From the UHGV virus genome UHGV-0106252: a stretch of 41,044 nt of DNA. One strand, written 5' to 3'. A program made the position numbers and the translations under genes. The notes beneath the pieces are model-generated. The model saw only the letters and a program-made list of their open reading frames with translations, had not been told where the DNA came from and ran no database searches. The DNA comes from a virus. Shown here piece by piece: positions 2,106 to 39,666 of this stretch; within the stretch, counting starts at the first letter, position 1, and every line of letters starts with the position of its first letter.

Positions 2106-2563
2106 TTTTGCTCACCTTCCTGTTCTTCCAGAAAAATACGCATAGCCTCAAGCATCTCTTCGGTGTCATACGGAGACAGCTTGTCACGCAGGATGTGTTC
2201 AATGCTGTTAATGAACTTGCGGATTGCTTTGCGTTCAATTTCAGCCAGGAAAGCGTCGGTGGCTTGGGTTTCAGTAACATCATCTTCCCATTCGCTAAAC
2301 TCCTCACGACAAAAGTCATTAAATTCCTTCTCAGATTGCTTAAGCGAGGTATTTTCAGCAGCCATCTTCGCGCATTTAGCCTCAAGGTTATCAATCGTGA
2401 TTCCAGCAGAACGACACTCCCGCAACGCCGTTTCCAGTTTTGATTCAAGTTCGCCGAACTTACGGACAAGATATTCAGCGTTTGTTTCGTTAACCTTTAA
2501 ATCACTTGGGATGCATTTACCTTTCAGAAAACCATCCATCTCAATTAGTGTCATTTGTTTCAT
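2102..2563 (-). CDS. Hypothetical protein
   Basis: 153-aa ORF with GGAG SD, coupled to neighbours. The overlapping 2059-2469 ORF is rejected. Confidence 0.5.
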
Positions 2564-2724
2564 TTCTTCCCACTCCGCAACATCGCATTCAGATATTTGT
2601 TGTCGTTAACAGAACCGAAACTCTTTCTTTTAAGCAATTCCTCTCTCGATGGCATTGGCTTTACGCGTTGGCGAATAATCATTTCTGCCGGAAGAATGCC
2701 GGGATTGTATGCAAGTCCTCTCAT
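2560..2724 (-). CDS. Hypothetical small protein
   Basis: In-frame ATG at 2724 preceded by GAGGA; the longer ORF-track start at 2877 overlaps the upstream gene. Confidence 0.35.
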
Positions 2725-3438: not shown

Positions 3439-4043
3439 TAAGCAGCCGCTCCTTCTAATTCGTCTCGTCTGATGTTGTAAACGTCCTGCGCTTTGTGCTG
3501 CTCCGGTGTGCCTTCGAGCATCTTCCACGCTTTGGCGAACGCCTGTTTAAGCTCTTCCACGGTGTTTTTCTGCATTGCTGCGTCAGTGAATGCTTTTAGA
3601 ACCTGTTCAGGTGTAGGTGATGGTTTTGATTGCTTTGCTGCTGCGTTCTGCTGATGTTTATGCTCGTCTGTATCTGCATCTTTCGCATCATCAATGCCGA
3701 ACAAACCATTAAGGCAATACTTGCGCGCATAAGAGCTTGTAGCTCCAGTAACTTGTGCAGAATCCATTCCTTTCTTGCTTTCTTCCTCTCTTGCGAGAGC
3801 GGTTGCCGTATGACTGTTTTCGCCATCGGTAATAGTTGCCGTGGCTTTCACGTAATACCGATCACCAATCAACACAACTTCATCGCTGATTGATAAAAAC
3901 AGGCCATTCAGTAACGGCTTAACGCCTTCAAGAATGTCTTCGCAGCTTCTGTATTTATATTTACCGAATGAGTTGTACTGATTCTTTGGCGCGTTCAGAT
4001 TCTCCTGAATAGCTGCCAGTCTTGCATAAAATTCTTTGCTCAT
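3438..4043 (-). CDS. erf: Erf single-strand annealing recombinase
   Basis: MSKEFYARLAAIQENLNAPKNQYNSFGKYKYRSCEDILEGVKPLL... is close to P22 Erf as I recall it. Confidence 0.85.
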   Translation of the reverse strand: MSKEFYARLAAIQENLNAPKNQYNSFGKYKYRSCEDILEGVKPLLNGLFLSISDEVVLIGDRYYVKATATITDGENSHTATALAREEESKKGMDSAQVTGATSSYARKYCLNGLFGIDDAKDADTDEHKHQQNAAAKQSKPSPTPEQVLKAFTDAAMQKNTVEELKQAFAKAWKMLEGTPEQHKAQDVYNIRRDELEGAAA

Positions 4044-4144
4044 ATGTTTGATCTCAGAATGGACACAGCCCAAGAAAATAACGCTGATTTAATACTTCGA
4101 CTCGGGACAAATTAAGGCATACCCGCACTCCTTCGCGGTCGCCA

Positions 4145-4303
4145 TTATGGCGATACCAGAGAGCTTTCTGCGTGTACATGCGTCTCTGTAACTTGCTCTC
4201 CTTCACTGTGGTTGCAAGTGACATGAATATCTCCTTCGTTACCGATTAATTCTTTCATCTGACGAATGAATTCTTCGTCTGACCAGTTATCTGTAAAACT
4301 CAT
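4145..4303 (-). CDS. Small protein in kil/arf position
   Basis: 52-aa ORF (MSFTDNWSDEEF...) between erf and cIII; its start overlaps the cIII stop. Confidence 0.35.
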   Translation of the reverse strand: MSFTDNWSDEEFIRQMKELIGNEGDIHVTCNHSEGEQVTETHVHAESSLVSP

Positions 4304-4470
4304 GGGCGGCCTTGTTGTTTCAAAATATCCCAAAGCTTTTCGAGCAAACTTTTCATTCTTGGTTGTTTAAAGTCTGCTCCGGTTAGAATGTTTTTTCGTG
4401 AATGCTGTACCGATAAAATCGGGTTGAAAGGGCGAACCGATGCCGCCCCTGCAATAGCGAACTGTTGCAT
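4300..4470 (-). CDS. cIII: CIII-like protein
   Basis: N-terminus MQQFAIAGA resembles lambda CIII MQYAIAGW. AAGGAG SD before the ATG at 4470. Confidence 0.55.
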   Translation of the reverse strand: MQQFAIAGAASVRPFNPILSVQHSRKNILTGADFKQPRMKSLLEKLWDILKQQGRP

Positions 4471-4664
4471 AGGATGCTCCTTCTGTTTGATTGCATAACG
4501 AAAACGCCTCGAGTGAAGCGTTATTGGTATGCATATAAAAAGGCCCTCACACTGGAGGGCAAAGAAGATTTCCAATAATCAGAACAAGTCGGCTCCTGTT
4601 TAGTTACGAGCGACATTGCTCCGTGTATTCACTCGTTGGAATGAATACACAGTGCTTATTTGTA

Positions 4665-5135
4665 CTAATAAAATACCCAATTTTCTGTTTCTTGGTTGTG
4701 CCCAAAGTTATATTCAATATCTGGTGTTGATGTATCAATATTCTTCATCCCATCAACAAGAGTTGATACAACAGCCAAATCTTGTTTGATTCTCATTAAA
4801 TGGTATTTCTTCCGGCGTAATAAACTTTCAATGGCAAGTTTCTTCGTTGGGAATGCAAAAGATCTTTCTGCATTTTTTGCTACTTTCTTAATTGCATATC
4901 TATTTCTCTTTTGTTTCCATTCCTGTAACCACTGATTTGGTGCTGGTTTAAAATTAACAATCCAATGCGCAGGAACCAACCATGCATAATGCTCTGTCTG
5001 ATGAAAAGCTATATATTGAAGTGCGAATATTTTGATTCCATCTTCTTCAACTGTCGCCTGGAATCTCCAGAAAACAGGCATTCCATCATGTTCAGTTTCT
5101 GATTCAGGAAAAGGTACGCTCCATGATTTTGTCAT
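4665..5135 (-). CDS. Hypothetical 156-aa protein (AT-rich moron in pL operon)
   Basis: Long ORF in a visibly AT-rich segment between N and cIII. No recognisable motif and no obvious transmembrane segment. Confidence 0.5.
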   Translation of the reverse strand: MTKSWSVPFPESETEHDGMPVFWRFQATVEEDGIKIFALQYIAFHQTEHYAWLVPAHWIVNFKPAPNQWLQEWKQKRNRYAIKKVAKNAERSFAFPTKKLAIESLLRRKKYHLMRIKQDLAVVSTLVDGMKNIDTSTPDIEYNFGHNQETENWVFY

Positions 5136-5189
5136 ATCTCACCTCAAATAAGTGGTTTGCTGCGAAAGTAAATACGCTTAAGTTACCTG

Positions 5190-5327
5190 TTATTTATCCC
5201 ACCAAGTTCCGTATCTATCTATCCAGTTACACCAATCATCGACACTCCATTTTGTTGTGTCGCATTTTGGCAACTGGCATGAATATCTACCTTCTTTGTA
5301 AAGTCGGCGTTTGACTTTCTTGAGCAT
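5190..5327 (-). CDS. Small Cys/Trp-rich protein (hypothetical)
   Basis: 45-aa ORF MLKKVKRRLYKEGRYSCQLPKCDTTKWSVDDWCNWIDRYGTWWDK with GGTGAG SD. Not in the ORF track (under 60 aa). Confidence 0.35.
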   Translation of the reverse strand: MLKKVKRRLYKEGRYSCQLPKCDTTKWSVDDWCNWIDRYGTWWDK

Positions 5328-5391
5328 GGCTCACCTCAATCGTAATAAGCTGGAATTGATTTTCCGCGTTGCTTCTGGCGACCAACACAAG

Positions 5392-5775
5392 TCATCTCGC
5401 CGTCAGTTGTTTTGATTTCCGGTATCCTGCTGCGTAAAGAGCTACATTTGGAAGACATACACCAGTTTCTGGTTGCTTATGTCCAAACTCATTCGCGTAC
5501 ACAATGGCCGCTCTCTCCAGATTGCGTCTGTATTCTTTCTGTTGCCAGATCACGTCCTGTGCCATGAACTTAATTGGCTTAGCGTCTTCTATGCGCTCAG
5601 GCGTTTCGTGAGTACCTTTAGCCTGAATCTGCGCTCTGCTTAGAGTAGGGCGGTGTAATACTTCTGAACTTATTGCTTCTTCGCGGGCCAGTACGCCGTT
5701 AGCTAATGCCTTTGCCTTTAAACGCTCACGACGACGAGAACGTGAATTGCCTTTGAACTGAGTTCTGCGTGTCAT
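5392..5775 (-). CDS. N: N-like transcription antiterminator (P22 gene-24 type)
   Basis: Arg-rich motif near N-terminus (NSRSRRRERLKAKA); C-terminus ...VALYAAGYRKSKQLTAR resembles P22 N. CAGGAGG SD before the ATG at 5775. Confidence 0.7.
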   Translation of the reverse strand: MTRRTQFKGNSRSRRRERLKAKALANGVLAREEAISSEVLHRPTLSRAQIQAKGTHETPERIEDAKPIKFMAQDVIWQQKEYRRNLERAAIVYANEFGHKQPETGVCLPNVALYAAGYRKSKQLTAR

Positions 5776-5903
5776 ATAGACCTCCTGGTGAACTTTGGCG
5801 GTGAATACAGCCGGGCGACTAACTCCGGTAGCGTAATCATTGCAAAGCGCCTCCGCCGAGAAGGTTAGCTTCTGCATTCACCCCAAAGTTCACTTTGGTT
5901 ATT

Positions 5904-5918
5904 GCGCTTTGTCAGCGC
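5904..5918 (-). promoter_or_regulatory. nutL boxB hairpin (P22 type)
   Basis: Minus strand GCGCUGACAAAGCGC: 5-bp stem with GACAA pentaloop, as in P22 boxB. In the pL leader upstream of N. Confidence 0.7.
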
Positions 5919-5988
5919 CGTAGATTCATATTTGAATCGTTGTATATTCACCGCCCTGGTGAGTAGTGCGTCCTGCTGATGTGTTTAG

Positions 5989-6049
5989 TATCACCGCCAG
6001 TGGTATTTATGTCAACACCGCTAGAGATAATTCATCACCGCAGATGGTT
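5989..6049 (-). promoter_or_regulatory. OL1-OL2-OL3 operators and pL promoter (lambda type)
   Basis: TATCACCGCCAGTGGTA (OL1), CAACACCGCTAGAGATA (OL2), CATCACCGCAGATGGTT (OL3); TTGACA/GATACT pL hexamers on the minus strand. Confidence 0.85.
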
Positions 6050-6200
6050 ATCTGTATGTTTTTTATATGAATTTATTTTTTGCAGGGGTGCATTGTTTGG
6101 TAGGTGAGAGATCTGAACTGCTATGTTTAGTGAGTTGTATCTATTTATTTTCAAATAGATACAATTGGTTATGTGTTCTTGGGTGAGGGGGATCGTGAGG

Positions 6201-6235: not shown

Positions 6236-6614
6236 TTAGGAATCAAGGTCAGGTAGCATGATTTTCTCAATCAACGTCAATGCCCTTTGGTCTCGTTCAG
6301 CAAAATATTTAGGAGCGTACTGAGGCAGCCACACTTCGTTGAAGTATTGTTTGAAATCTGCAATATTCGTTTGGGTATAGACGTACCGGGAATGTCCGGC
6401 CATCTGGGTACTCATGGTTATATGTTGGGAATGTCTTCGGCTCAACCCCCCGGTTGTCACGGAGCCATTGCGAGAAAACCCTACCCTCTGAAATATCAGG
6501 GACCATTTTTTCTGGCAGCGTATATCCGGCCTGTTCAAGTGGCGCAACCAAGTTAAACGTCAGTTCATTAAGCATAGAAAAGTGCGTATGAGGAACTCTG
6601 CCTCGGTTTGTCAT
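6236..6614 (-). pseudogene. Unknown gene in rexB position, apparently frameshifted
   Basis: Two overlapping same-strand ORFs (6309-6614 and 6236-6547). Protein-like N-terminus in one frame and protein-like C-terminus in the other; frames meet near 6385-6405. Confidence 0.45.
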
Positions 6615-6653
6615 ATACCGCTTAAGGTGGATAGGGAGTTCGGCAGGCGCTCT

Positions 6654-6995
6654 TTAACCTGACATCCACTCACGCACCCATCTCGATACTTGCACTGCAA
6701 ATTTTGGAGATAGCCACTGAGCTAAATTAATTGCGATGTCTGGATGAACCCAAGTCCCTTGATTCTCTGCTCTTCCGCCTTTAAATGATTGAATTAACTC
6801 CGATATGGGAATCCCCATATCGCGTGATAATTCATCAAAAAAATCTTGTGTTGTTTTTAGTCGTGTATAGTCAGCAAGTAGCTTCCCCGCAGACTTGCAC
6901 ATCGCGGTGGCATTGATGTATCCGTCTTTGGTGCGAAGATGGATGACTTCTCCATCAACTTCTCTAGCGATTAATGCAAGTTGAAATTGTGTCAT
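6654..6995 (-). CDS. KilA-N domain protein (stand-alone) in rexA position
   Basis: 113-aa ORF resembling the KilA-N DNA-binding domain; AGGA SD. Immediately downstream of cI in the same operon. Confidence 0.5.
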   Translation of the reverse strand: MTQFQLALIAREVDGEVIHLRTKDGYINATAMCKSAGKLLADYTRLKTTQDFFDELSRDMGIPISELIQSFKGGRAENQGTWVHPDIAINLAQWLSPKFAVQVSRWVREWMSG

Positions 6996-7026: not shown

Positions 7027-7743
<717 letters not shown>

Positions 7744-7840: not shown

Positions 7841-8041
7841 ATGGAACAACGCATAACCCTGAAAGATTATGCAATACGCTTTGGGCAAACCAAGACGGCT
7901 AAAGATCTCGGCGTATATCAAAGCGCGATTAACAAGGCCATTCATGCAGGCCGAAAGATTTTTTTAACTATAAACGCTGATGGAAGCGTTTATGCGGAAG
8001 AAATAAAGCCCTTCCCAAGTAACAAAAAAACAACTGCATAA
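7841..8041 (+). CDS. cro: Cro repressor (lambda type)
   Basis: 66 aa, near-identical to lambda Cro (two substitutions relative to my recollection). Confidence 0.95.
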
Positions 8042-32185: not shown

Positions 32186-32752
32186 TTATTTTATAGTTTT
32201 TATGAATTCTTTATTAAATCCCTTAGCTTCTCCGGGATATCTTCCAAAGACAATTTTTATAAAAACAGAAAAAATAAAGATAGCAACGCTTAACAACAGT
32301 TGCAGTATCATTGGAACCCAAAGAACTACAGGCTCTATATTCATGAAACCAAATATTCTTCCGGCGATCATGGCGAAGTACCACACTGTTATCAGCAAAC
32401 TTAGTGGCATATGAATTACTGATATTACCAATCCAAGAGCATCAGTAATTCTATTTTCAAATTTTTCAGGGGAAAACTTTTCTTTAAGGTAATTCAGTGC
32501 GCAGGCCTCATTCTCTGGATTTTCAGCATTTTTCCCTATAGCAATAGAAATCTCAGATATCCTTGATTCAATTCTTTTGCGTTTAATAAAACTAGAAAAA
32601 AAGAACCACGCAATCTGCAACCCTATCCCCATAAATAGAGTTGCGGCAACTAGCACAGCGTAACTCATAGAATCAGACACACCAACCTCTTTAGTTTTTC
32701 TAGTTACTTTGTCACGATAGGATATGCGAATTGATAAAACTAAATTGCGCAC
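32186..32752 (-). CDS. Integral membrane protein, SieA-like by position
   Basis: Three predicted TM segments; AT-rich; convergent with gp16 where P22 carries sieA. Start uncertain (GTG at 32752 or ATG at 32668). Confidence 0.5.
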
Positions 32753-32897
32753 ATGATAACTCAGTAATAATTGTTAATGAAAACATGATCACCTATATTG
32801 CACAAGGCGAAACAGGAAGCATAATCTGGTTTCATGAGTGTGATCACGTTTGGGTAAATCAAAGTCAAGAGGAAATACTTGAAATTATCAAAAATAA

Positions 32898-33479
32898 CTA
32901 TCTAAACGTTGCACACGACTCATCTATCCATTTTTCATAAAATTGTATACCGAGATAGGCAAGAACAGATGGATGTATATCAACAAGCTTTTCGCCAAGA
33001 TGTTCTGTTGGAGGTGGATAATCTTTGCCTTGGTTTCTTACGGTTATAGGCATAGTTGTTGCTGGATGAAACTCAACTATCATAGGGTCGCCTTCGTATT
33101 TTGCTATTTTCCCTGTTGAATCAATGATTAACTCTTTAATATAATGGCTTCTTGCTCCCGGAAATGCCCCAAGAGTAGTATAAGGAGGTTCAAGTTTTGA
33201 GATTTCCATAGTGGAATGATGATCAGCATTTCTTGCTTGGTGAAGGTAAGCAAGTGTTTTGTCTGTTTTTCTAAGCATGAACTTTTGGTTGAAGTGGCTG
33301 CTAAATTTTCCACTAACCGGCTTTGTTGCACAGAGCAACTTACTGAAAGACTTTTCTATATGCCCAAGACATTCTCGCCAGTGCATTTCAAAATCATCAT
33401 GGTTTGTAGATGATTTCATCTGCTCTAGGCACTTTTTAGCTGCGATGATTTCTTTTTTTGCTGGGTTGTAATCGATCAT
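32898..33479 (-). CDS. Unknown 193-aa protein co-transcribed with mnt
   Basis: ATG overlaps the mnt stop (ATGA). AT-rich; no motif I recognise. Confidence 0.55.
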   Translation of the reverse strand: MIDYNPAKKEIIAAKKCLEQMKSSTNHDDFEMHWRECLGHIEKSFSKLLCATKPVSGKFSSHFNQKFMLRKTDKTLAYLHQARNADHHSTMEISKLEPPYTTLGAFPGARSHYIKELIIDSTGKIAKYEGDPMIVEFHPATTMPITVRNQGKDYPPPTEHLGEKLVDIHPSVLAYLGIQFYEKWIDESCATFR

Positions 33480-33730
33480 TTTGCATCCTTGCCATACATG
33501 TTTTTAAGTGTCTCAAATACCACAGACTTGAACTGTTCAGCCTGCATCTCGGCTAATCGTTCAGCTTCATTGCGATAACCTTTTACAGGAGATGGTCTCG
33601 ATAGAGCATCTTGGACGATTTGCAACAATTCTGAGTTCATTGATCTACCATTTGACTCTGCTCTGTATTTTAATTTTTCTCTTACTTCCAAAGGCATGCG
33701 GAAGTTAAAGTGCGGATCATCTCTAGCCAT
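33476..33730 (-). CDS. mnt: Mnt repressor (ribbon-helix-helix)
   Basis: MARDDPHFNFRMPLEVREKLKYRAESNGRSMNSELLQIVQDAL... is close to P22 Mnt. Confidence 0.9.
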   Translation of the reverse strand: MARDDPHFNFRMPLEVREKLKYRAESNGRSMNSELLQIVQDALSRPSPVKGYRNEAERLAEMQAEQFKSVVFETLKNMYGKDAK

Positions 33731-33752
33731 GCCATCACTCCAAGTTAGTGTA

Positions 33753-33805
33753 TTGACATGATAGAAGCACTCTACTATATTCTCAATAGGTCCACCGTGG
33801 ACCTA
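33753..33805. promoter_or_regulatory. immI control region: Pant with Oarc and Omnt operators
   Basis: ATGATAGAAGCACTCTACTAT (33758-33778) matches the P22 arc operator as I recall it; TAGGTCCACCGTGGACCTA (33787-33805) is the palindromic mnt operator; TTGACA at 33753-33758. Confidence 0.85.
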
Positions 33806-33820
33806 TATTGTGAGGTGAAC

Positions 33821-33982
33821 ATGAAAGGAATGAGCAAAATGCCGCAGTTCAATTTGCGGTGGCCTAAAGAAGTATTGGATTTGGTACGCAAGGTGGCGGA
33901 AGAGAATGGTCGGTCTGTTAACTCTGAGATTTATCAGAGAGTAATGGACAGCTTTAAGAAGGAAGGGCGTATTGGCGCGTAA
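33821..33982 (+). CDS. arc: Arc repressor
   Basis: [53 protein letters not shown] is near-identical to P22 Arc (53 aa). Confidence 0.92.
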
Positions 33983-34050
33983 AGTTGAAGCCCCAACTGC
34001 GGGAACAGTCAGGGCTTCTGTTGTCAGTAAATTCGTGGAGAAAAACCAAC

Positions 34051-34953
34051 ATGAATAGTATAGCAATTTTAGAAGCAGTGAACACCTCTTACGTACCTTT
34101 CAATGGTCAGCAGATTATCACCGCCATGACTGCCGGAGTTGCATATGTTGCGATGAAGCCAATCGTTAAAAACCTTGGAATGAGCTGGTCAACGCAGCAA
34201 ACAAAACTCATGAAGCAGATTAGCAAATTCAACTGTGTTCATATGAACATGGTTGCCGCTGATGGTAAGCTTCGTAGGCTACTCTGCCTTCCTTTGAAGA
34301 AGTTAAATGGATGGCTGTTCAGCATCAACCCTGAGAAAGTTCGTGCTGACATCCGCGATAAACTGATTCAGTACCAGGAAGAATGCTTTACTGTGCTGCA
34401 TGACTACTGGACGAAGGGAAAGGCAGAAAATGCACGTAAGAAAACATCTGTTGATGACAGGACTCCGCTTCGTGATGCTGTAAATATGCTAGTCAGCAAA
34501 AAGCATCTAATGTACCCAGAAGCTTATGCAATGATTCATCAGCGTTTCAACGTGGAAAGTATTGAAGAGCTTGATTCATCTCAGATACCGCAAGCAGTAG
34601 AGTACATCCACAGGGTAGTGCTTGAAGGCGAGTTCATCGGCAAACAAGAGAAGAAAACCAACGAGCTTTCTGCAAAAGAAGCAAACAGCCTTGTATGGCT
34701 ATGGGATTATGCCAACCGCTCACAGGCATTATTCCGCGAACTGTATCCGGCATTAAAACAAATTCAATCGAACTATTCCGGCAGATGCTACGACTACGGT
34801 CATGAATTCTCGTATGTTATCGGAATGGCGAGAGACGTTTTAATAAACCACACACGAGATGTTGATATTAATGAGCCAGACGGACCAACGAATCTTTCCG
34901 CATGGATGAGACTTAAGAATAAAGAATTACCTCCTTCAGTACATAACTACTGA
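34051..34953 (+). CDS. ant: Antirepressor Ant
   Basis: 300 aa, [26 protein letters not shown]... close to P22 Ant. Confidence 0.9.
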
Positions 34954-35062: not shown

Positions 35063-35572
35063 TCACCTACCATGATTCTCATGATAACCATAGGTCTTTT
35101 CAGCCTCACGCCTTACAGCAATTGCATCATCGAGACACTTAAAGTATCCGAGATTAATGCGCTTCCCTGCGTCGCTAATATATGCCACCCACTTTTTATG
35201 GGTCTTATGCCATGAAACACCTGCGCACCCAGATGTATTGTTTGTGTATTTAGATTTGTTTTTTAGGTTTTCACCGAGACTAACTAGACGCAGGTTGTCT
35301 ATTGAATTATTTAACCCATTACCATCTTTATGGTCAATTTGCATTCCTGAAGGGATTTCACCATAAAACATTTCCCATATTATCCTATGGGCGGCGTATA
35401 TTTTATCTTGATACCTGATAATTATATAAGATGTTTTCCTGTTCTTGTCCTTGAATATATGTCCTGCAGGCTTTTCTTTAGAGATATTGAACATTTTGGG
35501 TCTTGAAAGATATTGGTCACTCCAGTACAGGAGTCCATCGTCTTTTAATACGAATACTTCGTTCCAGTTCAT
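35063..35572 (-). CDS. HNH homing-type endonuclease with C-terminal AP2 DNA-binding domain
   Basis: HNH motif IDHKDGNGLNNSIDNLRLVSLGENLKNK, then AP2-like SGCAGVSWHKTHKKWVAYISDAGKRINLGYF. AAGGTGG SD before the ATG at 35572. AT-rich. Confidence 0.75.
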   Translation of the reverse strand: MNWNEVFVLKDDGLLYWSDQYLSRPKMFNISKEKPAGHIFKDKNRKTSYIIIRYQDKIYAAHRIIWEMFYGEIPSGMQIDHKDGNGLNNSIDNLRLVSLGENLKNKSKYTNNTSGCAGVSWHKTHKKWVAYISDAGKRINLGYFKCLDDAIAVRREAEKTYGYHENHGR

Positions 35573-35658
35573 GTTAACCACCTTTAAATAAAGTTCACTC
35601 ATTATACAAAAACATGCTAGCAATGAATATTGCTTGCTTAACATATAGAGAAATTAAA

Positions 35659-37665: not shown

Positions 37666-39666
37666 CTAATTAATTACAAAGCCGTTATCATTAAGTATTT
37701 CTTTAACACCAGATTTAGATAAGTGAAAACCAACATTATATAATCCGCCGTTATGGTCAATTATTCTACAACCATTGTCATCACATAAAGTTTTTATAGG
37801 TTTTATCTTATGCAATCCTTTCATGTCAGGAATATATTTATCTAATATATCGGATTGTTGTTTTGCTAAGTTAAGCCCATTTCTGCTGCTTGTGTATGTT
37901 GTCTCAAACTTATAATTGATAGATCTTAGTTTTGAGAATACTATGTTGGCAACATCTTCAGAAGGATTAGGGGTTGGGTATACAATATATACATCATGCC
38001 CCTTGGACACGAGTTTCTTAACATTATTCGATAGAGAGATATATGCCTGCTCGCCACCTAAAAAATCTCCGCCACTAAAATTTTGCTTCGCCATCTCTAA
38101 AGGAGATGACACAGGAGCCTTAGCAAGCGGGAATTGATCATAATTAGCAGCTATAAAAATAGTTTTCTTCCCCTTAAGAGAATCAATGGCTTTCCATCTT
38201 TGCTCATTGACAACCACACATTCAGGAACATTGCCAAACCACATATCACTCACAAATGGACATTGCTCATACGTGAGAGATAACATCCCTTTGTTATTTT
38301 CTTTTGAGTAATCTAAAATTGTTGGTGCATATTGTCCAGCATAGCTATCTCCTAATACGATGATGTCATCACCGCCAAAGCTACACGGGTTATCAAGAGA
38401 ACGTAAACCACATAAATAACTATCAGGTTCACCTCTTAAACTTTTACCAATATTTGAATAATCTGCCAATTTCCTGAACTCTGGTTCTTTGTACATTTCA
38501 TAGGTTTCTTTCAGAATGCCTGCAAGACGCCACTGAAAACCCCCATCGGCCTTTGCATAAATAGAGAAAGCAAGCAATGCTGACAGAGATGTTGCTAATA
38601 CTATTGTATTCTTACTTTTAACATGTTTTGCTCTATATGGTTTTTCAATAAAAAAATATGAAAAAGACGAAATAACAATTGAAATTGATGCTAATACTAC
38701 ACAGTAATAAGGAGTGATATTTTCACTAAATAATATCCTGTAAAAAACAAAAACAGGTTGATGCCATAAATATAGAGAATATGATATCAAGCCAATAAAG
38801 ACAATCGGACGCAAGGATAATATTTTAGATATTAAATCGGCACCATTTGCAAATGCGATTATCAAACATGAACCAGCTACAGGTATTAGGGTGATAAATG
38901 AAGGGTGTTTGATGTTATTTCCAAAAAACAACATTGAATAAACAATCATCAACATTCCAATTACTGGCAGAAACGAAGTTAAAGATGATTGGTCTTTATG
39001 TATATTGCTTCTTCTTTCTTTTACAAAAAAAGACACAATTCCACCAAGAATTAATTCCCATGCCCTTGGTAGTAGCGTATAGAATGCTAAGTCAGGGTAA
39101 CTGCTAACTATAATATTTGCATACACAATAGATGAAACAGAAATCAATATAAGAAGTAATACTCTGTATTTCTTAATAAATTTATTTATAAAAATCAATA
39201 AGAATGGATAAAATACGTAGAATTGCCATTCAACAGCAAGACTCCATGTATGAAGGAGTGGTTTAAATATACTTGCATTTGATACATAGCTATCTTCACC
39301 AAGAAAATAATAATTAGAACCAAAATAAATAGCAGAAATGAGAGATTCAGAGAATTTTACTAAGTCATTTGGTAGAAGAATTTTATAAGCCACTATCGAT
39401 GTAACTACAAGCATAGCAATAAGAGCAGGAACAATTCTCTTTATGCGTCTCCAATAGAAGTCAGTTAGTGAGAAAGAGCGGCTATCAAGTTTATTTATAA
39501 TGATATCTGTAATTAAATATCCTGAAAGAACCAGGAAGACATCAACTCCAAAGAATCCGCCTTTGAATATCTTTACTCCAAACAAAGAAATGCCAGAGTG
39601 ATAAATGATGACAGCCATCACTGCCAAACAACGCAATCCATCAAGCTCTTTCCTATACTTAAGCAT
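37666..39666 (-). CDS. oac: O-antigen acetyltransferase (acyltransferase-3 membrane domain plus SGNH domain; Oac/OafA-like)
   Basis: 666 aa; N-terminal multi-TM acyltransferase-3 domain (RCLAVMAVIIYH...), C-terminal SGNH-like domain. AT-rich. Same position as oac in Sf6. Confidence 0.75.
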   Translation of the reverse strand: MLKYRKELDGLRCLAVMAVIIYHSGISLFGVKIFKGGFFGVDVFLVLSGYLITDIIINKLDSRSFSLTDFYWRRIKRIVPALIAMLVVTSIVAYKILLPNDLVKFSESLISAIYFGSNYYFLGEDSYVSNASIFKPLLHTWSLAVEWQFYVFYPFLLIFINKFIKKYRVLLLILISVSSIVYANIIVSSYPDLAFYTLLPRAWELILGGIVSFFVKERRSNIHKDQSSLTSFLPVIGMLMIVYSMLFFGNNIKHPSFITLIPVAGSCLIIAFANGADLISKILSLRPIVFIGLISYSLYLWHQPVFVFYRILFSENITPYYCVVLASISIVISSFSYFFIEKPYRAKHVKSKNTIVLATSLSALLAFSIYAKADGGFQWRLAGILKETYEMYKEPEFRKLADYSNIGKSLRGEPDSYLCGLRSLDNPCSFGGDDIIVLGDSYAGQYAPTILDYSKENNKGMLSLTYEQCPFVSDMWFGNVPECVVVNEQRWKAIDSLKGKKTIFIAANYDQFPLAKAPVSSPLEMAKQNFSGGDFLGGEQAYISLSNNVKKLVSKGHDVYIVYPTPNPSEDVANIVFSKLRSINYKFETTYTSSRNGLNLAKQQSDILDKYIPDMKGLHKIKPIKTLCDDNGCRIIDHNGGLYNVGFHLSKSGVKEILNDNGFVIN

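Follow-up and report, generated by a model that had tools for sequence, protein, structure and literature searches.

The 41,044-nucleotide stretch of the UHGV virus genome UHGV-0106252 (the window, to which all positions refer) carries two small open reading frames (ORFs), ORF45 and ORF156, between the phage genes N and cIII. Our analysis demonstrated that both are real genes under selection, and that they represent two independent, horizontally exchanged cassettes in the promoter-proximal slot of the pL operon. An earlier note, made from the sequence alone, had described them as an AT-rich moron encoding an unknown protein and a Cys/Trp-rich peptide; both ORFs were confirmed at the coordinates given there, on the minus strand. 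The locus is an ordinary but uncharacterised accessory slot, both families being already catalogued, function apart. As to function, we tentatively favour the possibility that ORF156 may be an early, non-enzymatic binder of nucleic acid or of an acidic partner, which would act in host takeover or counter-defence.

Two cassettes between N and the PreS block

The slot and its borders comprise the following features, listed in the order of their positions.

4300-4470, minus: cIII, the next operon gene beyond the terminator block (phrog_550, E 4e-22)
4522-4503, minus: second terminator-like hairpin, just 5' of cIII (terminator scan)
4536-4655, minus: block equivalent to lambda tL2a and LPR1/PreS, left edge of the cargo slot (identity to lambda)
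4656-5132, minus: ORF156 cassette (blastn breakpoints against phi458)
4665-5135, minus: ORF156, 156 aa, ATG start, TAG stop; HK97 gp45 / 933W L0079 family (PHROG 1636)
5145-5138, minus: Shine-Dalgarno sequence GAGGTGAG of ORF156 (direct sequence reading)
5164-5372, minus: ORF45 cassette, 209 bp (blastn breakpoints against HK97, 933W and H-19B)
5190-5327, minus: ORF45, 45 aa, ATG start, TAA stop; Pfam DUF5484 / T4-like gp55.4 family
5337-5330, minus: Shine-Dalgarno sequence GAGGTGAG of ORF45 (direct sequence reading)
5392-5775, minus: N, right edge of the cargo slot, of the 933W/H-19B type, 127 aa counting from an internal ATG
6015-5987, minus: pL promoter, TTGACA-17-GATACT (promoter scans), in a region 92.8% identical to lambda oL/pL

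The two cassettes are found separately as well as together. HK97, 933W and H-19B lack the ORF45 cassette, so that N is followed almost at once by the ORF156 homologue; in HK97, the sequences matching window 4477-5163 and 5373-5803 are contiguous save for 11 bp, as determined by blastn. Phage phi458 lacks the ORF156 cassette, and about 310 bp of unrelated sequence replace 4656-5132; it matches the window over 5133-5394 and 4533-4655, with an ORF45 that is 100% identical and with the PreS block kept. Both cassettes are present in Bas106 and E. coli SC407 (ORF45 by DNA match, annotated in Bas106 only), each with two extra small genes between ORF156 and the PreS block. In E. coli A21005 (NZ_CP185938.1), an Nmad5 'nucleotide modification' gene takes the place of ORF45, and the ORF156 homologue is located directly downstream. 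Among 5426 complete E. coli genomes, 2240 match part of 4533-5391, and 47 have both cassettes in tandem. As the presence of the cassettes varies across genomes, the interval from N to PreS constitutes a site of variable cargo, with sharp junctions, and the pair is not obligate. The A21005 prophage also carries a 'TolA'-annotated gene of 322 aa, placed between the PreS block and cIII (locus coordinates 518-2787 cover both cargoes), and thereby shows two adjacent variable cargo sites.

The earlier note had equated the interval with the sieB/ral region of lambda, and this assignment is borne out by the block at its 3' side: window 4533-4655 is 97.6% identical, over 123 nt, to lambda 33,923-34,045, a segment between ral and ea10. 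As this block corresponds to lambda tL2a/PreS, ORF45 and ORF156 fill exactly the place taken in lambda by sieB, orf28 and ral. A tblastn search of the whole window yielded no homologue of ral, orf28, sieB, ea10, P22/H-19B gp17 or Nmad5, lambda Ral giving no match at E < 0.01. The block (4536-4655) is near-invariant across lambda, HK97, 933W and the phage studied here, and consists of a 12-bp hairpin (about 4622-4650), the body of a small RNA (sRNA) and a terminator hairpin (4560-4543) with the U-tract CTTTTTAT. Its predicted RNA fold is more stable than that of shuffled sequence (z = -5.2), and Rfam 15 holds no match for it. In lambda, the sequence represents the terminator tL2a together with the Hfq-dependent sRNA LPR1/PreS, which raises host dnaN, is present from 10 min after induction and is absent in lysogeny; LPR1/PreS is also conserved in other lambdoid phages, in eight further phage species and in prophage-like sequences of eight bacterial species (bioRxiv 10.1101/2024.10.31.621285).

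Leftward from pL, the genes are arranged in the order N, ORF45, ORF156, the structured non-coding block, cIII, two small genes, Erf and an SSB-like ORF, the latter assigned by sequence alone. The N gene is well supported (Pfam N_peptide, E 2.8e-16; phrog_271, E 3e-39) and shares 97-98% DNA identity with N of HK97, 933W and H-19B (blastn). ORF45 and ORF156 are co-directional with the operon and closely packed, and each ATG is preceded, at a distance of 4 nt, by an identical strong ribosome-binding site (GAGGTGAG). Scans by consensus revealed pL as the sole promoter-like site 5' of the two ORFs on their strand: no sigma-70-like site occurs on the minus strand over 5135-5480, where the best candidate is a match at the relaxed threshold of 8 of 12 that lies inside ORF45. 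Similarly, no terminator-like site was detected from 4665 to 5392. We take the lambda terminator tL1 to lie between N and ral; if so, this barrier has been lost in the present phage.

The AT-richness reported for the locus was confirmed by a GC scan, with a GC content of 36.8% over 4665-5327 compared with 45.9% for the whole window (z = -1.75). Equally low values occur in 8.8% of same-size windows across the whole window. Within the first 31 kb, only windows that overlap the locus are this low (0.2%), and it constitutes the lowest 663-bp stretch there; the only other islands as GC-poor are located at 32.1-33.4 kb and 35.0-40.0 kb.

The ORF156 and ORF45 proteins

ORF156 encodes a soluble, basic protein (isoelectric point (pI) 9.05, no Cys, seven Trp) that matches phrog_1636 over its entire length (residues 1-156 of 156, E 5.4e-112). 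Identity amounts to 100% with an ORF of H-19B that lacks annotation, 99.4% with 933W L0079 and 98.7% with HK97 gp45. Homologues at 55-85% identity reside in prophages of Pectobacterium, Brenneria, Cronobacter and Rosenbergiella and in Salmonella phage NX263. The length is kept across genera, the alignment of Enterobacterales homologues has 40 invariant columns, and the ratio of non-synonymous to synonymous substitution rates (dN/dS) is 0.05-0.22 for five informative homologues. An exhaustive profile search recovered 87 cluster representatives at E < 1e-3, mostly of 130-160 aa, and all members of the family are unnamed or 'hypothetical'; the distant member P0057 matches PHROG 1636 ORFs reciprocally (E 1e-6). 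Two long multi-stretch profile matches, P0066 and P0087, were dropped as low-complexity repeat proteins. A match of ORF156 to the PADLOC profile Cas1_II (E 0.0097, 13 bits) was set aside as noise, and a kinship of the family with H-19B/P22 gp17 received an hhalign probability of just 1.4%. Sequence searches of Pfam, NCBIfam, PADLOC and the PDB gave no informative match. The description of ORF156 as free of recognisable motifs holds for Pfam, NCBIfam and the PDB, and its lack of transmembrane (TM) segments was likewise confirmed; hydrophobic segments are absent from both proteins, the maximal 19-residue Kyte-Doolittle values being 0.56 for ORF156 and -0.74 for ORF45.

Structural modelling of ORF156 with AlphaFold2 from a 74-sequence alignment gave a confident model, with a predicted local distance difference test (pLDDT) score of 95.5 and a predicted template-modelling (pTM) score of 0.83; this run was used in place of an earlier one on 22 close homologues, which was weak (pLDDT 65). 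In the model, three strands (19-30, 33-46, 50-55) form a long beta-meander; two short helices, one further strand (83-86), a helix of 33 residues (98-130) and an ordered tail at the C terminus make up the rest. No solved structural relative of this model was found, and a structure search of BFVD returned 14 matches at E < 1e-3, from phages of Erwinia, Achromobacter, Delftia, Rhizobium, Sinorhizobium, Tenacibaculum and Cellulophaga. Every one of these is an uncharacterised phage protein, and this is the outcome of the structure prediction that the earlier note had recommended. The model therefore suggests a small, phage-specific alpha/beta protein with an apparently phage-specific fold. Across the 74 members, conservation of at least 90% is confined to G33, T47, K87, A101 and hydrophobic core positions, and conserved residues of catalytic type are absent. 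The central segment (74-117) carries a net charge of +5 to +14 in 74 of 74 members, +14 in ORF156 itself, and is flanked by ends that are mostly net acidic.

The genomic contexts of the family are diverse. In other lambdoid contigs, the homologue immediately follows N. In NX263-like phages it opens a divergent early operon, ahead of a ParB/KorB-type helix-turn-helix (HTH) protein, and Vibrio PvVp04 and the virulent Pantoea phage LIET2 carry homologues within early blocks of small genes. In 3 of about 11 independent contexts, LIET2 included, distant homologues are preceded at a distance of a few genes by a gene for a C5-cytosine DNA methyltransferase; this association is too weak for any conclusion and may be due to chance. 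A Phage_phiTE_072 (PF26211) gene likewise recurs near distant homologues, in LIET2 and two other contexts, one of which also has the methyltransferase gene.

ORF45 encodes a basic mini-protein (pI 9.37) with five Trp, three Cys (C17, C22, C33) and no His. It had been called rich in Cys and Trp, with four Cys and possibly zinc-binding. The Trp content stands; one Cys too many had been counted. Nor is ORF45 devoid of a recognisable motif: it scores 46.7 bits against PF17583 (DUF5484), where the gathering score is 27 (E 2.6e-12; residues 5-42, profile positions 3-41 of 43), and it matches phrog_1871 (E 1.4e-22). The conservation of the small ORF, a point on which the earlier note had made its view depend, is evident from homologues in 1037 phage records (tblastn), RB32 gene 55.4 among them. 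About 10 of these are lambdoid copies at 80% identity or above, and the remaining records are below 60%; among the matches listed, the latter belong mostly to T-even-like phages of Escherichia, Klebsiella, Shigella, Yersinia, Citrobacter and Enterobacter, as gene 55.4 in the cluster from gene 55 to nrdG. Homologues from T-even-like, Klebsiella, Enterobacter and Erwinia phages share 41-56% identity with ORF45 and 14 invariant residues (M1, K6, R7, K11, G13, Y15, P20, T24, W27, W32, I36, D37, G40 and W42). This invariant set includes none of the three Cys, two of which are replaced, for example by G or I, in every T-even-like and Klebsiella/Enterobacter homologue. Since no Cys is conserved in the alignment, a zinc site is unsupported, and ORF45 is not a zinc finger. 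DUF5484 has no relative in the PDB. ORF45 is probably an independent mini-protein with a Trp core that binds or inhibits a host component. An unannotated DUF5484 homologue was also observed in the temperate Erwinia phage phiEt88, 3' of the repressor gene (2495-2641, plus strand, of the locus examined), where the record annotates an opposite-strand ORF of 118 aa, P88_00440, which is probably a mis-call.

Possible functions of the locus

In lambda, the PreS RNA belongs to the lytic phase, and both families occur in virulent phages; on these grounds, it might be hypothesized that ORF45 and ORF156 are transcribed from pL together with N upon infection or induction, and would be silent in the repressed prophage. 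As members of the ORF156 family share a basic face and lack conserved residues of catalytic type, ORF156 would be a binder rather than an enzyme, and might engage nucleic acid or an acidic host protein stoichiometrically through its basic central surface. Host takeover or counter-defence appears the likeliest purpose because of the promoter-proximal position and the replacement of ral, for which ORF156 would be a positional, non-homologous stand-in. Taken further, it might be speculated that the PHROG 1636 family constitutes an unrecognised, phage-specific class of counter-defence or host-takeover proteins with a new fold, made with N in the first minutes and substituting for Ral. We regard this wider proposal as improbable. 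If true, PHROG 1636 proteins would replace Ral function in Shiga-toxin (Stx) phages, HK97 and P22-like prophages, their distant relatives would do likewise in virulent phages of many bacterial groups, and the conserved basic face would bind nucleic acid or a host complex that handles it.

Several points weigh against an early binder of this kind. The argument from the ral slot is guilt by location. The structure of ORF156 is a prediction, and a basic patch fits DNA, RNA, membrane or protein partners alike. Rho-dependent termination may occur, or the consensus scans may have overlooked a weak promoter, and both points weaken the proposed timing. Two contexts are at odds with an early position next to N: in a Pectobacterium prophage the ORF156 homologue adjoins xis/int, away from N, and in one metagenomic phage it resides among structural genes. 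In addition, a literature search on PHROG 1636 and DUF5484 gave no functional account of either family, and a search of an anti-defence machine-learning preprint likewise gave no result.

The main alternative, which we nevertheless consider unlikely, is that ORF156 serves the phage itself, as a DNA- or RNA-binding regulator or as an accessory factor in early transcription, replication, recombination or excision. The conserved basic surface would suit such a role, as would the place of the homologue at the head of an early operon, before the ParB/KorB-type protein, in NX263-like phages and beside the excisionase and integrase genes in the Pectobacterium prophage. However, lambdoid phages with the same N can dispense with ORF156, whose presence varies among them: it is carried by 83 of the 342 phage records that match the N-to-cIII region (window 4300-5900). 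It occurs in free combination with Red/Gam, Erf/Abc2 or RecT modules, and neither an HTH nor any other known DNA-binding motif was detected in it, nor a Pfam match. The searches made revealed no homology of either ORF to a replication or recombination function.

A role in anti-restriction had been raised in the earlier note, and ORF156 might indeed substitute for Ral by acting on type I or other restriction-modification systems, or in conjunction with DNA modification; this narrower form of the favoured reading is a doubtful explanation. It would agree with the exact positional replacement of ral in a window that lacks it, with the Nmad5 gene directly 5' of the ORF156 homologue in E. coli A21005 and with the methyltransferase genes near distant homologues. 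Yet the early regions of prophages often carry orphan methyltransferases, so that the latter association may be chance; ORF156 bears no sequence similarity to Ral, and its basic nature sets it apart from DNA mimics of the Ocr/ArdA type. In a plasmid collection, moreover, ORF156 homologues occur in just 11 records, all non-mobilizable and resembling phage or chromosome fragments, and ORF45 has zero matches.

The locus would be a classical moron if it were an autonomous AT-rich unit that is expressed from the repressed prophage and confers superinfection exclusion or another fitness trait on the lysogen. The low GC content and the cassette-like presence or absence among close relatives, the parts of that description that hold, are in line with this, and so are the terminator 3' of ORF156 and the location of lambda sieB in the same interval. 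In the strict sense, the term does not apply: neither ORF has a promoter-like site of its own on the coding strand, even at 8 of 12, and both lie in the pL operon, closely packed and with operon-style ribosome-binding sites. The supposedly own terminator belongs to the shared, conserved tL2a/PreS block, whose lambda RNA is absent in lysogeny; both families also occur in virulent phages (T-even-like phages for ORF45, LIET2 for ORF156), and neither protein has TM segments, unlike exclusion proteins of the SieB type. We therefore judge a classical moron to be quite improbable. Finally, the view that either ORF, or both, represents an open frame arisen by chance in AT-rich non-coding sequence is essentially refuted: although the Prokaryotic Genome Annotation Pipeline (PGAP) often leaves ORF45 uncalled, as in the near-identical prophage of E. 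coli strain 81, and the H-19B record leaves ORF156 unannotated, the low dN/dS, the length kept across genera and the confident structure from co-variation for ORF156, the score above a curated Pfam cut-off and the 14 residues that remain invariant at 41-56% identity for ORF45, and a strong ribosome-binding site for each speak for genuine genes.

As sequences, the two genes are already known, with near-identical copies in textbook phages and both families catalogued, and the current understanding of lambdoid phages is left standing. What is new is a confident ORF156 model without a solved relative, a family broader than its annotation implies, a conserved basic charge pattern and precise limits for the cargo slot, which runs from N to PreS/tL2a; the readings as a zinc finger and as a strict moron lose support. 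In HK97, and also in 933W, H-19B and numerous further phages that convert to Stx1 or Stx2 production, N is immediately followed by ORF156. Its product would accordingly be among the earliest proteins made upon induction of a Shiga-toxin prophage, and the slot between N and PreS can be mined for further early host-interaction genes.

The wider window and comparison with known systems

The window as a whole represents a P22-like prophage, with a tailspike that has the P22 head-binding domain, sar RNA, mnt, arc, ant and a sieA-like gene, and it has a lambda-type immunity region (cI 7027-7740, cro 7841-8041, pL 6015-5987). The prophage of E. coli strain 81 is 99.8% identical to it over 4000-6100. 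At the position of rex between cI and pL (6236-6995, minus), two adjacent ORFs match the abortive-infection protein BstA (PADLOC BstA, E 4e-12): a KilA-N ORF of 113 aa (6654-6995) and an ORF of 101 aa (6309-6614), which cover positions 6-121 and 164-253 of phrog_6287. The two ORFs appear to be parts of one bstA gene interrupted by a frameshift or stop; they are followed by a terminator-like hairpin (6227-6210), and the strain 81 prophage has a KilA-N gene and an adjacent hypothetical gene at the same position.

A P22-type immI region (33476-34953) is present in a phage with a lambda-type immC, and comprises mnt-like (33476-33730) and arc-like (33758-33982) genes, the sar antisense RNA (33983-34050, minus; Rfam RF00262, 91 bits) and the gene for the antirepressor ant (33985-34953). 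At 32186-33479 (minus), a low-GC island encodes an uncharacterised protein of 193 aa (phrog_23516) and a SieA-like protein for superinfection exclusion (phrog_7745, E 1e-108). An inserted HNH endonuclease ORF (35063-35644, minus; phrog_99, E 7e-60) separates ant from the tailspike gene and is encoded on the opposite strand. In the gap between the tailspike and integrase genes, a 35% GC island encodes a 666-aa AT3 acyltransferase-SGNH fusion of the O-antigen acetylase type (37666-39666, minus); as a true moron of lysogenic conversion, this gene is a more plausible candidate than the ORF45/ORF156 locus. As in morons of lambdoid phages (HK97 gp15, lambda bor/lom), the latter is AT-rich and subject to insertion and replacement among relatives; unlike them, it has no promoter of its own that was found by the scans, its terminator is a shared operon sequence, and its expression is expected to be lytic rather than lysogenic.

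Among the known early proteins, lambda Ral, orf28 and sieB occupy the same slot, from N to tL2a/PreS, and are likewise accessory. Ral has 66 aa, whereas ORF156 is a basic protein of 156 aa with an unrelated predicted fold and no sequence similarity to it. SieB has no tblastn match in the window, and neither protein of the locus has a hydrophobic segment. DNA mimics such as Ocr and ArdA present an acidic surface, in contrast to the pI values of 9.05 and 9.37 of ORF156 and ORF45. Zinc-binding peptides of the Cys4 or Cys2His2 type need four ligands, while ORF45 offers three Cys and no His. The closest likeness of ORF45 is to gp55.4 of T4-like phages ('Uncharacterized 5.1 kDa protein in Gp55-nrdG intergenic region'), with a score above the Pfam cut-off and 14 invariant residues in common; at 41-56% identity, the lambdoid version differs by its three non-conserved Cys and by its location in the pL operon of a temperate phage, rather than in the gene 55-nrdG cluster of T-even phages. 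The non-coding block shares with lambda LPR1/PreS the terminator hairpin and the U-tract, and its 5' neighbour is ORF156 here and ral in lambda. ORF156 finds its counterparts in HK97 gp45, 933W L0079 and the H-19B ORF, which resemble it in length and place, each being the last gene before the tL2a/PreS block; in those phages the homologue directly follows N, whereas in the phage studied here the 209-bp ORF45 cassette intervenes.

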